Shown here one piece after another: positions 13,646 through 54,703 of a stretch of 64,000 nucleotides of DNA. Position 1 is the first letter of the stretch. The number at the start of each line of letters is the position of its first letter. A program made the translations under genes and the position numbers. Origin of the DNA: a virus (taxonomy: Duplodnaviria; Caudoviricetes); IMG/VR virus record IMGVR_UViG_3300014205_000175, positions 138,827 to 202,826 of that record, one strand, 5' to 3'. The notes beneath the pieces were generated by a model, which was given only the letters and a program-made list of their open reading frames with translations, did not search any database and was not told where the DNA came from.

Positions 13646-13699
13646 GCACTTCCCTCTTCTCCCTACCTGGCAGATGCCGGTAGGGAGAAGAGAGGGTGC
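13646..13699. terminator. Long hairpin between convergent genes
   Basis: CCCTCTTCTCCCTACC...GGTAGGGAGAAGAG inverted repeat with a T-rich tail on the + strand. Confidence 0.7.
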
Positions 13700-13700
13700 T

Positions 13701-14057
13701 TTATTTTTTGCTATCGGAATGAAACTGCTGCTCCACTGATGCTGCGATGTTGGACTTACGTCGGTTTTCTTCATCGGCTGAGCGATTGAGCATATCGACA
13801 ACATCAACCGGCATCTCCAAGTATTCGGCGATGCTTAGTCCATAGATCTCACGGATGTTTTTGGCGATGTAGATACGCAGTATCGTCTCCATGAGACTGC
13901 CATCATTGGGATTTTCAACATCATGAAATGCAACACTCGATAGTGGTTTGGCGATTGCTTGTTTGAAATGGTTGTGTACACCATACTCGACATCATAAGC
14001 ACTACCCAACACAATAGCGCTATCGACGGCATTGAGTTTGGGTAGCTTCTTGAACAT
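13701..14057 (-). CDS. Hypothetical protein; probable C-terminal T part of a -1 frameshift fusion with 14123-15655
   Basis: The frame stays open upstream to the T7 run at 14166-14172. IYGLSIAEYLEMP resembles tail/baseplate chaperone T domains. Confidence 0.7.
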   Translation of the reverse strand: MFKKLPKLNAVDSAIVLGSAYDVEYGVHNHFKQAIAKPLSSVAFHDVENPNDGSLMETILRIYIAKNIREIYGLSIAEYLEMPVDVVDMLNRSADEENRRKSNIAASVEQQFHSDSKK

Positions 14058-14119
14058 CTCACCGATAAAGCTGTACCAGTCTACATCCAGTCCGAAACCT
14101 GGTACAGCGATATGACGTC

Positions 14120-14171
14120 CACTCAGCGAGTCGCTATTCTCTGAATTCGCTGAGTGATGAGGCCGAAAAAA
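14120..14171 (-). promoter_or_regulatory. Putative -1 programmed ribosomal frameshift signal
   Basis: In-frame slippery heptamer T TTT TTC (14171-14165), 8-nt spacer, perfect 10-bp stem CACTCAGCGA (14156-14147)/TCGCTGAGTG (14129-14120). Confidence 0.75.
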
Positions 14172-15655
14172 AGCTGGATCACATCCAACGGGATGATGTT
14201 AACAAATGCATCATTGATGGTGTTTTCTTTTTGCTCCGTATGACATACCGGGCAGTCGTAAGTAGGAATGCCAACTACTGCCAGCGTGCTATCATTGATA
14301 TACTTGACCACGGCTTCAATGAACTTTTCACGCACCCGATCATCTGCCGACATCACATCCAGCGTCATCTCGATGGTTTCGCGATCATCGATGACGTTGC
14401 TATCGAGTTCGATCGATTCGATCCAGTGGGCATACTGGCGCATTGAAGTAGCCTGCGCATACCGTTGGATGATGAGGTTACGTTCTTCATCATTGGCAGT
14501 AGTATTGATGCTCGTAGTGATCTTATCAACGATGCCAGAAATCCAACGATGGCCTTCGTTGACATACTGCGTGACCGTCGGCGATTTGAGAGTGACATGT
14601 AGCTCTGAATCTGTGAACGCATCCGAGAGTGAGACACGACGGTTTTTCAGTCCTAGCATCTCATCCCGGTACTTCTTCACGCTACTGAGATCACGACCGA
14701 ACGGTTGACGCAGTGCCATGTGAGATTTCTGCCACTCAGTTAGAGCATTGCTGTTGGTCCACAGTAGTTTACTCAGATTCAGCCGTTCCTCAACGACGTG
14801 GTTGCATTTTTCTGGATTGGTCAGACAGCCACGTTGGTACTGAAAGCCTTTCGGGTACATCGTACAAGCAAAACCCCACACCAGTGTGAATAGATCTTGC
14901 ACTGCGATATGGTCCCGGATATTCGAAATCGGCAGTTCCTCGTTACGTACCGTAGTGGTGTAGATATGCGAAGCGATGAAATCCATCAGGTAATCGACAG
15001 TGTAGCTCGTCGTATTCGAATACACCAGACCGTAGGTGAAACGACCCATGCGGATTTTCTCCGACACCAGTAGTCGGTTAAGCTCGATGATCTCAGCTTC
15101 AGTGGGTGGTTTGAGCGTAACCCAAATACCGCTATGCCATAGCGGCACTTGGAACGTCGTGCCCAACCCCAGCTGACGAATCACCCTCAGTACCGCTCGC
15201 TCGCCTTTGAGGTTCTCGTTTTCCGTCTGTTTGATCTTGGGTGCCTGAGCACTATAACGCTGACCGTTAAAGTCCACTGATTGTTTGTAAAGAGCGCTGA
15301 CGTTTTCCATGGTAGGCACGAAAGCCTTGGCAAACGTATTATACTCTAGGCCACCAGCCACTACATCAGCCCATTTACGCGAATCGGGATTATCGAGTAG
15401 GTTGATATTAGGAGTATCTTCGAGAAGCTGACGAGCTACCGAGTCCAGATTAGACGGCAGAGGTAGCGTGAGATCATTGTCATCCCAGTTTGTCGCTGTA
15501 CTGACAGCTTCCTCTTGCACTGCTTTATGGCGGATCGGTACAGATTTATCTTCTTCGACTGCTATCTCAGGTTCTACTTGAGGCACCGGGCTCTCATAGA
15601 CTTCATCGGTTTCAACCGTATTTTCTACTTCGCTAGCACAGCTTTCTTGATTCAT
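14123..15655 (-). CDS. Conserved jumbo phage protein (phiKZ gp77-like by synteny); candidate tail/baseplate assembly chaperone
   Basis: 510 aa, two Cys pairs (CLTNPEKC, CPVC), ends ...QLFF at the slippery site. Loosely resembles T4 gp26/gp51-type hub assembly proteins. Confidence 0.65.
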   Translation of the reverse strand: MNQESCASEVENTVETDEVYESPVPQVEPEIAVEEDKSVPIRHKAVQEEAVSTATNWDDNDLTLPLPSNLDSVARQLLEDTPNINLLDNPDSRKWADVVAGGLEYNTFAKAFVPTMENVSALYKQSVDFNGQRYSAQAPKIKQTENENLKGERAVLRVIRQLGLGTTFQVPLWHSGIWVTLKPPTEAEIIELNRLLVSEKIRMGRFTYGLVYSNTTSYTVDYLMDFIASHIYTTTVRNEELPISNIRDHIAVQDLFTLVWGFACTMYPKGFQYQRGCLTNPEKCNHVVEERLNLSKLLWTNSNALTEWQKSHMALRQPFGRDLSSVKKYRDEMLGLKNRRVSLSDAFTDSELHVTLKSPTVTQYVNEGHRWISGIVDKITTSINTTANDEERNLIIQRYAQATSMRQYAHWIESIELDSNVIDDRETIEMTLDVMSADDRVREKFIEAVVKYINDSTLAVVGIPTYDCPVCHTEQKENTINDAFVNIIPLDVIQLFFGLITQRIQRIATR

Positions 15656-53434: not shown

Positions 53435-54703
53435 ATGCCTGCGACTACTATCCGCTATGAACTAGATATTACCGGTGTCAATCCCGATAACCTAGTGATC
53501 GGCGAGCTACACAATCTCAATGACAGGGAAGTAAGAGCCATCACGCCGGTGCATGGCCCTTTTTTCACTAGCCAATTACAAGTCTACGATAACACCACCG
53601 GACGTATCCTCACCCGCGGACTGCATTACCAGTGCGTTGAGCTACTCCAAGACGCTACACTTAAATATGGTAAAGAGATCTGTAGCGTTATATTGATCAT
53701 AGATAAGACCATCAGTCATGACGTTAAGATCACCTACCAGGCGCTAGGGGGGCATTTTAGCAACGATGCTACCGCGATAGCCAACTTGTATGAGACGGTG
53801 ATGCAAGACGAGCGACCTGTGCAGTGGGTCAATCTGCTGAATAAGCCGGCTGAATACCCACCTGCACTACATCGTCACCTCCTGGAAGATCTATACGGTT
53901 TCGAACCGGTAGTGGCAGCACTAGAACGTATCCGTAATGCCATAGTGCTCTCGGACGTACCGGCGTTTGAAGCGCTGATCGATTATGTGCATCAGCGTGT
54001 GAGTATGCTCACATGTAAGGAAGCAACGACGATCCGCCCAGTGAGAAAAATTGTCACCTATGATCGACTGCTAGTGACGCTCTCTAAGCTAGGGATATTA
54101 TCGGGATATAAGATTGCCTATCTGCCTGAACGTGTTCCTGAAGGCGGTAGCTTTAATGTACAGATCACAAGTAAAGACGTACCCGACGGTACGACGATCT
54201 ATTGGGAGATTGTTCACAACACGACTGACGACGATGATTTTATCGCCAGTAGCGGTGAAATAGTCATCCGTGACAACCGTGGTAGTTTCACCATACAGCT
54301 AGTTGTCGATGCCTTAAGTGAACCGGCTGAACAGTTTTCATTGATGCTCAAAGAACGAGCCGATAGTGAAGACTGTTTATATGTGAGTTGCTCGATTCAG
54401 GTTCAGCAGATCAACCCGAGCATCGACGATATCGATATCTGGGATCTGTACCGCTATCCTGATACAGCGCTGGCAAGCACTAGCCTCATCACACCAGCTA
54501 AGCTCTTTATGTTCTCGAACAAGGGCTTTGATGATGTGCTGCGTAGGTCTGGTTATACGGGTGATCCGGAAAATATGTGGGATCTATTCCGTGATCCGGA
54601 TATCTATCGCAGCGAAAAGAACTTCATCAACCCTAGTCGTCTCTATATGTCTAGCTCCAAAGAAACAGACAACCTCGTGTTCCTACCGAGTAGATATGTT
54701 TAA
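53435..54703 (+). CDS. Tail/baseplate-associated virion protein with a Calx-beta-like domain
   Basis: YELDITGVNPDNLVIGELH N-terminus of phiKZ-type tail proteins. VPEGG...DDDF...SG...DALSEPAEQF. Confidence 0.7.
   Translation: MPATTIRYELDITGVNPDNLVIGELHNLNDREVRAITPVHGPFFTSQLQVYDNTTGRILTRGLHYQCVELLQDATLKYGKEICSVILIIDKTISHDVKITYQALGGHFSNDATAIANLYETVMQDERPVQWVNLLNKPAEYPPALHRHLLEDLYGFEPVVAALERIRNAIVLSDVPAFEALIDYVHQRVSMLTCKEATTIRPVRKIVTYDRLLVTLSKLGILSGYKIAYLPERVPEGGSFNVQITSKDVPDGTTIYWEIVHNTTDDDDFIASSGEIVIRDNRGSFTIQLVVDALSEPAEQFSLMLKERADSEDCLYVSCSIQVQQINPSIDDIDIWDLYRYPDTALASTSLITPAKLFMFSNKGFDDVLRRSGYTGDPENMWDLFRDPDIYRSEKNFINPSRLYMSSSKETDNLVFLPSRYV

Follow-up and report, generated by a model that had tools for sequence, protein, structure and literature searches.

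Two overlapping open reading frames (ORFs) on the minus strand of a tailed-phage genome very likely constitute a single recoded locus, from which a short protein and a longer fusion sharing its N-terminal part would be produced. The stretch of DNA analyzed here, hereafter the window, comprises 64,000 nucleotides (nt) of the IMG/VR virus record IMGVR_UViG_3300014205_000175 (Duplodnaviria; Caudoviricetes; positions 138,827 to 202,826 of that record), and the locus occupies its positions 13,701 to 15,655. The upstream ORF encodes a protein of 510 amino acids (aa) that is the orthologue of phiKZ gp077, PhiPA3 gp074, and 201phi2-1 gp136; it matches phrog_4585 (E = 1e-107), and tblastn recovers a homologue in 239 phage records. 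The locus is best described as a very probable -1 frameshift, conserved among jumbo phages, in a gene for a proposed relative of the T4 gp26/gp51 hub chaperones, and programmed -1 ribosomal frameshifting is, in our assessment, the best explanation of its organization and a reasonably probable one. That the two ORFs form one recoded locus with a short and a long product had been proposed in a first-pass annotation made from the letters of the window alone, and the conservation of the arrangement among relatives, as laid out below, supports this proposal.

In the window, the zero-frame codons CTT TTT TTC (14173-14165) encode L495-F496-F497 and include a run of seven T (14172-14166) that overlaps the slippery heptamer (see Table 1 for the coordinates of the individual features). 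Codons 498-510, 13 in all, separate the slippery site from the zero-frame TGA (14125-14123). The -1 frame has a stop codon at 14199-14201, is open from 14198 down to the stop at 13701-13703 (165 codons from stop to stop), and reads ...FFRPHHSANSENSDSLSGRHIAVPGFGLDVDWYSFIGEMFKK.... The predicted fusion combines 495 residues with a further 156, the two Phe codons being counted among the latter, to give 651 aa; the predicted trans-frame junction peptide of this phage is ENTINDAFVNIIPLDVIQLFFR, and its zero-frame counterpart is ENTINDAFVNIIPLDVIQLFFGLITQR. The short and long products would have masses of about 58 and 74 kDa; for phiKZ, the predicted lengths are 533 and about 687 aa. Downstream of the heptamer lies a stem-loop with the arms CACTCAGCGA (14156-14147) and TCGCTGAGTG (14129-14120), the second of which contains the zero-frame stop codon. 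The first-pass annotation had described the heptamer 13 codons before the stop, the 8-nt spacer, the stem of 10 base pairs (bp), the open -1 frame, and the 651-aa fusion, and we confirmed all of these in the sequence. Taken alone, the heptamer is weak evidence, because crude gene calls on the 202,826-bp genome yield 10 in-frame T TTT TTY heptamers as well as seven sense-strand T7 runs; nine of these heptamers lie outside the locus, those within the window being found near 53557 (+) and 31693 (-). The significance of the slip site hence derives entirely from its conservation across relatives.

The relatives considered are four annotated phage loci and 77 loci from IMG/VR, to which those of phiKZ, SPN3US, Goslar, JM-2012, and PCH45 were added. 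Counts concerning the run and the reading frames refer to 78 distinct related loci, those concerning start codons and the conserved motif discussed below refer to 81 loci, and the 70 aligned proteins fall into 37 clusters at <50% identity. A run of five to eight T coding for the same conserved Phe-Phe is present in all 78 loci, at a distance of 10 to 20 codons from the zero-frame stop (39 codons in three loci), and in every one of them the -1 frame remains open for 152 to 194 codons beyond the run; the +1 frame is usually closed within a few codons. The four model phages whose loci were scanned for the T run, namely, phiKZ, SPN3US, Goslar, and JM-2012, share the run and the -1 arrangement; in phiKZ, the site reads ACT TTT TTT, and the 167-codon -1 ORF shares its stop with the annotated 80-aa PHIKZ076.4. 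Thus, the expectation of the first-pass annotation that orthologues would keep the slippery run and the -1 geometry holds in all 78 loci, whereas the stem that it expected alongside them is shared with a single relative, L006. In L076, L080, and L081, the zero frame goes on for 39 codons past the T run, which gives the short product a longer private tail.

The frames in this overlap point the same way. Between the run and the zero-frame stop, -1 stop codons occur in none of the 78 loci, as against 43 of 78 for a segment of equal length just upstream; the corresponding figures for the +1 frame are 42 and 50 of 78. Therefore, the 5' edge of the -1 ORF lies at the run, inside the upstream gene, and reinitiation after the zero-frame stop would not need a -1 ORF that begins there. 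Further, no in-frame fusion of the two parts occurs among the loci compared, and the zero-frame tail following the Phe-Phe is itself conserved as protein, which together are consistent with both products being needed; likewise, no longer protein that includes the extension turned up in a search, although this is weak evidence.

The slippery sequence is conserved beyond the needs of the protein, i.e., there is nucleotide-level selection on the run. The Phe codons at the site are TTT in 131 cases and TTC in 19, with the first of the two always being TTT; the share of TTT among Phe codons elsewhere in the same genes is 39%, and it drops to about 10% in GC-rich loci. Indeed, GC-rich loci that use TTT 0 to 2 times per 12 to 17 Phe codons still read TTT TTT at the site. 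Among the 61 loci with a four-fold degenerate codon in front of the site, 52 have T as the third base of that codon, versus 20.1 expected (binomial p = 4e-17, uncorrected for shared ancestry), and the remaining nine all have G. All 78 loci retain at least U UUY in the zero frame, and most read U UUU UUY.

Putting these observations together, we propose that most ribosomes would read CTT TTT TTC in the zero frame and continue for 13 codons to the TGA, giving the 510-aa protein with its conserved C-terminal tail. A minority would slip back by one base with the phenylalanine transfer RNA (tRNA-Phe) on the U run, where UUU and UUC could both re-pair as UUU; these ribosomes would then go on in the -1 frame (CGG CCT CAT...), appending a conserved domain of about 154 residues that is largely helical and thereby completing the 651-aa form. 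The outcome would be a short and a long form of a non-virion tail or baseplate assembly factor, made in a fixed ratio, which is the same logic as that of lambda gpG/gpGT; the efficiency of the shift and the function in assembly are what we infer here. Granted that the locus is recoded, we further infer, with fairly good confidence, that it is the ribosome that slips. Slippage of the ribosome on U UUY is favored over that of a polymerase because loci with a run of only five T still conserve the residues upstream of any ATG, because every locus keeps the minimal zero-frame U UUY, because runs are no longer than T6 in a third of the loci and reach T9 in none, and because TTC is accepted as the second Phe codon, at the cost of a shorter run but not of the heptamer. 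In addition, bare or weakly stimulated sites are normal among the frameshifts of phage tail chaperones, and T7 gene 10 reportedly shifts on G GUU UUC.

Set against the above are several features of the same sites, which make programmed ribosomal frameshifting less secure. The canonical X XXY YYZ heptamer is missing from nine loci with G UUU UUU and from seven whose run is only T5. The family also lacks a conserved stimulatory RNA structure: the 60 nt following the run fold no better than other 60-nt segments of the same genes (mean z = +0.27 across the 78 loci, 19 of them below -1), and on this ground a downstream structure was rejected as a family feature. The 10-bp stem, to which the first-pass annotation had pointed, accordingly does not hold up as a general stimulator. 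In the window, the hairpin has a folding energy of -18.8 kcal/mol and z = -1.35, with 21 of 200 shuffled sequences folding at least as well; its arms are identical, with a different loop, in the nearest relative, the above-mentioned L006 (67% protein identity), and it is absent from most other lineages, distant ones having different hairpins or none. This stem may be a lineage-specific stimulator or local enhancer. A further hairpin, of 7 bp, is found 5' of the run in the window (GTTGGAT / GTG / ATCCAGC), and a comparable one is present in only 3 of the 78 loci; this terminator-like element, too, was rejected as a family feature. Only the run and the frame relation are common to all loci.

That a homopolymer run of T5 to T8 should be the sole conserved element, without conserved flanking structure, also counts against the ribosome in that it suits transcriptional slippage, wherein the phage or host RNA polymerase would sometimes add one U at the T run and the ribosome would read the resulting message normally. 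We consider this unlikely. The selection for T lengthens the run at its 5' side and would aid slippage by the polymerase and the ribosome alike, and 14 loci have a T8 run although seven T suffice for the heptamer. Moreover, these phages use their own multisubunit RNA polymerases, with a virion RNA polymerase beta gene lying 1.4 kilobases away, and the hairpin directly 5' of the run in the window recalls the 5' hairpins that, in work by Penno et al. from 2015, reportedly stimulate slippage in some insertion sequence (IS) elements. However, known bacterial polymerases need runs of about eight to nine or more for useful slippage (mxiE, Thermus dnaX, and IS elements), a length out of reach of the third of the loci with T5 or T6 and at odds with the lack of any run of T9 or longer. 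The T5 loci nevertheless keep the junction region under protein-level selection, the scarcity of the 5' hairpin among the 78 loci tells against this mechanism as well, and the genome tolerates seven sense T7 and 16 A7 runs within other genes. A narrower version of the idea, namely, that the phage's own noncanonical multisubunit RNA polymerase adds one U at U5 to U8 as a conserved device of nucleus-forming phages, strikes us as more doubtful still; if true, it would mean programmed slippage, family-wide, on runs shorter than any known bacterial polymerase uses.

Whichever machine slips, the downstream part lacks a credible start of its own. The -1 product is conserved from the shift site on (alignment A3), beginning with FFYPxRxE... 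and continuing into an H-[VI]-x4-FG motif (H-x5-FG), which reads HIAVPGFG in the window; tblastn matches of the product begin at its residue 3 or 4, and its match to phrog_12109 (E = 2e-21) begins at residue 26 of the stop-to-stop ORF. Thus, conservation of the downstream ORF upstream of its ATG, which the first-pass annotation had anticipated, was found and runs through the HIAVPGFG motif. In the window, the ATG lies 13 codons past this motif, and in 78 of the 81 loci the first ATG likewise lies downstream of it; two loci are without any ATG, several have their first ATG more than 100 codons in, and 69 of 81 have no ATG, GTG, or TTG ahead of the motif. The sole Shine-Dalgarno (SD)-like sequence at ATG 14057, GGTGAG, is only 0 to 1 nt away from it; the gene start at 15655 has a GGAG with an 8-nt spacer. 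We conclude that the 118-aa ORF beginning at this ATG is most likely not an independent gene and, more generally, that an independent downstream gene is excluded for practical purposes.

Two ordinary genes would nonetheless be the reading suggested by the public records, where they are annotated separately, and by the presence of an ATG in the window: the downstream ORF would start there or at a noncanonical start, possibly by termination-reinitiation, and the run would merely encode Phe-Phe. This residue pair is indeed conserved at the protein level even in T4 gp26, which has no slip site, and in the pT24 record considered below a homologue of the C-terminal half of the extension occurs as a separate small ORF in the +1 frame. 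Still, this reading is highly improbable in the face of the -1 relation in all 78 loci, with the -1 frame open back to the run throughout the overlap with the upstream gene; of conservation that in 78 of 81 loci begins before any possible ATG; of the choice of TTT and of the preceding T against codon bias; and of a window ATG without a properly spaced SD sequence. In one clade (L027, L035, and L042), the run is shorter, the site reading GTT TTT ATC/ACC/TCC, and an ATG has arisen immediately ahead of the FG motif. Residues upstream of this ATG are still conserved; the clade could represent a lineage on its way to initiating the downstream part independently. Lastly, the idea that one 651-aa gene was split at its T7 run, a classic site of indel errors where one added T would fuse the frames, by a recent frameshift mutation or by an error in sequencing or assembling the homopolymer can be dismissed because the same split recurs with a constant frame relation, at runs of T5 to T8, in about 80 independent assemblies and in finished isolate genomes, with no in-frame version found and with the zero-frame tail conserved as protein.

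The identity of the upstream protein is a separate question from the frameshift. We propose that it is a distant, enlarged jumbo-phage relative of the T4 gp26/gp51 baseplate-hub assembly chaperones, a remote relationship suggested by profile comparisons and by predicted structures. T4 gp26 and gp51 figure as hub assembly chaperones in PMC3004832, and the NCBI name of the family is "gp26 family baseplate hub assembly chaperone." An AlphaFold model of the 510-aa protein (predicted local distance difference test [pLDDT] score of 85), when compared by Foldseek to the predicted structures of BFVD, retrieves, below its orthologues, about 15 proteins named baseplate hub assembly protein, subunit, or chaperone (226 to 312 aa; E = 1e-4 to 1e-2; probability, 0.9 to 1.0; template modeling [TM] score normalized by the target, 0.43 to 0.60). 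The Pfam family PF12322 (T4_baseplate) is matched at E <= 1 by 4 of 70 members of the family, over the C-terminal half of the profile, L015 among them with 15.7 bits. With hhalign, residues 449-500 of the window's protein align with residues 170-208 of T4 gp26 and, profile to profile, residues 411-500 with 135-208. These alignments are collinear, and the aligned C termini share the pattern CPxC ... FF-x-LL, which would make the slip site the family's own terminal Phe-Phe. In T4 gp26, three residues follow this FF, which is encoded by TTC TTT, and there is no slip site and no -1 extension. The hub gene cluster of T4 contains a 56-nt overlap between genes 27 and 28 (L088 6349-6404), the latter being in the +1 frame.

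Direct comparison with solved structures is less telling. At E <= 0.001, Foldseek finds no match for the 510-aa model in the PDB, and the A2 and A3 profiles have no matches among PDB sequences. Against 48,161 chains, VIA-align gives a best Z of 3.9 and places two tail assembly chaperones in the top four, tied with unrelated helical chains: 3klu (YqbN; Z, 3.9; root mean square deviation [rmsd], 4.2; 85 residues aligned) and 2ob9 (the HK97 chaperone; Z, 3.6; rmsd, 4.3; 101 residues aligned). Both of these weak matches fall on residues ~237-460. As for the virion, the Goslar virion structure paper describes a model of 28 proteins with a T4-like hub and never mentions gp81 or gp82, which fits a non-virion factor; in the phiKZ record, gp079 and gp080 are flagged as structural and gp077 is not.

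The proposed kinship with the hub chaperones has to be held against several findings that do not favor it. Pfam yields no match for the window's 510-aa protein, and even the best-matching member of the family, L031, scores 23.3 bits (E = 5.8e-5) with PF12322, below the cut-off of 24.5. The hhalign probability of the gp26 alignment is 3.6 to 25%. The gene adjoins virion RNA polymerase genes rather than tail genes, and the Churi orthologue of phiKZ gp077 was found in an early-infection proteome (PMC11849849), which is unexpected for a late chaperone. On balance, we are inclined, if only slightly, to regard the protein as a hub or tail assembly chaperone.

The extension is predicted by AlphaFold2 (AF2) to be helical, with a long C-terminal helix (pLDDT, 87). 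Its fold matches only generic long-helix proteins, such as the MerR dimerization helix (Z, 5.5), none of which is informative, and its profile shows no similarity to T4 gp51 (probability, 0.1%). A clue to its history comes from the distant jumbo phage pT24 (LC168164.1, reverse strand 140472-141591; L096-L097), where a gp26-like ORF of 306 aa ending in ...CEKCGH...NFLL precedes and overlaps a small ORF. The hidden Markov model of the extension matches this small ORF with its C-terminal half (E = 7.7e-6). The small ORF is in the +1 frame, and there is no T run; therefore, the frameshift does not extend to pT24, in which, to judge from the sequence, the two parts appear to be separate genes or to be joined in some other way. 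As a homologue of the extension nevertheless stands beside a gp26-like gene, the partnership of the two seems older than the frameshift. Searches of the pT24 and T4 records with the PF12322 and A2 profiles gave no matches.

Table 1. Features of the frameshift locus in the window
Feature	Coordinates	Strand	Basis
Zero-frame gene, 510-aa short product	14123..15655	-	ORF list, translation
Slippery heptamer U UUU UUC	14165..14171	-	Zero-frame codons CTT TTT TTC
Spacer GGCCTCAT, 8 nt	14164-14157	-	Sequence
Stem-loop, 10-bp perfect stem and 17-nt loop	14120..14156	-	Sequence, fold
-1 frame extension, predicted to be translated only after the shift	13701..14164	-	Open frame; phrog_12109; AF2 model
118-aa ORF from the first ATG (14057)	13701..14057	-	Second gene in the style of a gene caller
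7-bp hairpin directly 5' of the T run, terminator-like geometry	14173..14189	-	Sequence

On one side, the locus is flanked by gp078-like, gp079-like, and virion RNA polymerase beta genes and, on the other, by a convergent accessory gene, a synteny shared by phiKZ, PhiPA3, and Goslar. The absence of an adjacent tape measure gene, to which the first-pass annotation had drawn attention, is thereby borne out. Just past the stop of the -1 ORF, between the two convergent genes, lies a long imperfect palindrome (window positions 13652-13696; arms of 18 nt, with a 2-nt bulge, and 16 nt around an 11-nt loop), which is probably a bidirectional terminator or an RNA end, although it escaped a simple scan.

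None of the genome records compared annotates a joined coding sequence, and we found no paper describing the frameshift, in agreement with the earlier remark that no such description was known for phiKZ-like phages. All records compared treat the second half as a small hypothetical gene in its own right, and its start is often arbitrary: the annotated lengths are 80 aa in phiKZ, 109 in Goslar, 123 in SPN3US, 134 in PhiPA3, and 182 in Desertfox, and the phiKZ version, PHIKZ076.4, is merely the C-terminal half of the -1 ORF behind PHIKZ077 (L083 3715-4230). The gene is shared among phiKZ-like jumbo phages, including phiKZ, PhiPA3, 201phi2-1, Goslar, SPN3US, RAY, and PCH45; hence, recognition of the frameshift would put right how a core gene is annotated in hundreds of genomes, and knock-outs, tags, and essentiality calls for "gp077" and "gp076.4" would concern one locus with two products. 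It would also extend the two-form logic of lambda G/GT to the gp26/gp51 family, in phages without a known tail assembly chaperone frameshift, suggest a possible reason for the two paralogues of T4, and offer a testable handle on the poorly understood roles of gp26 and gp51. Finally, the approximately 80 natural U-run sites, which range from T5 to T8 in three phases, with and without hairpins, are suited to measuring the capacity of a bare U run.

Several parallels are offered by known systems with two products from one locus. The nearest in logic is lambda gpG/gpGT: here, too, a -1 shift close to where the first ORF ends leads into an ORF without a good start, the short and long forms share their N-terminal part, no strong stimulatory structure is needed, and a tail assembly factor that stays out of the virion is the probable product. 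The arrangement is conserved beyond sequence, in line with the conserved -1 frameshift in tail assembly chaperone genes that Xu, Hendrix, and Duda, as cited in PMC9024508, are said to have described in 2004. However, the first product is 510 aa long as opposed to ~140 aa, the locus does not lie between the tail tube and tape measure genes, and the site is a U-only run in place of G GGA AAG; nor is there sequence similarity to the lambda G/T families, with fold matches to solved chaperones reaching only Z 3.6 to 3.9. Since size, position, and sequence do not fit, the locus is not a member of the lambda G/GT family. The G/GT-like chaperone pair envisaged in the first-pass annotation thus stands as an analogy of logic and falls as a family assignment, a remote gp26/gp51 relative taking its place. 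With T4 gp26/gp51, the protein shows remote similarity in sequence and fold over its C-terminal half, including the CPxC ... FF-x-LL pattern, but the T4 proteins have only 208 and 249 aa, without the long N-terminal part, and come from a pair of paralogous genes, where the jumbo phages would have two forms of a single one.

The site itself is better matched elsewhere. In T7 gene 10A/10B, for which Condron, Atkins, and Gesteland reportedly described in 1991 a -1 frameshift on G GUU UUC, a U-rich tRNA-Phe slip site likewise lies near the end of the gene, and the minority product gets a C-terminal extension; noncanonical re-pairing in the ribosomal P site is tolerated there, which bears on the loci that read G GUU UUU or G UUU UUU. 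The T7 product differs in being a capsid protein with a dispensable extension of 53 aa, made from a site that depends on distant 3' sequence. The tau and gamma forms of dnaX arise in Escherichia coli by programmed -1 ribosomal frameshifting on A AAA AAG and in Thermus by transcriptional slippage on A9. In dnaX, the shift shortens the product, unlike the lengthening seen here, and the E. coli site has a strong flanking SD sequence and stem-loop, stimulators of a kind not conserved in the jumbo-phage loci. Nevertheless, dnaX resembles the present locus in drawing two forms from one gene at a homopolymer-type site, and it illustrates that slippage by the ribosome or by the polymerase can reach the same outcome.

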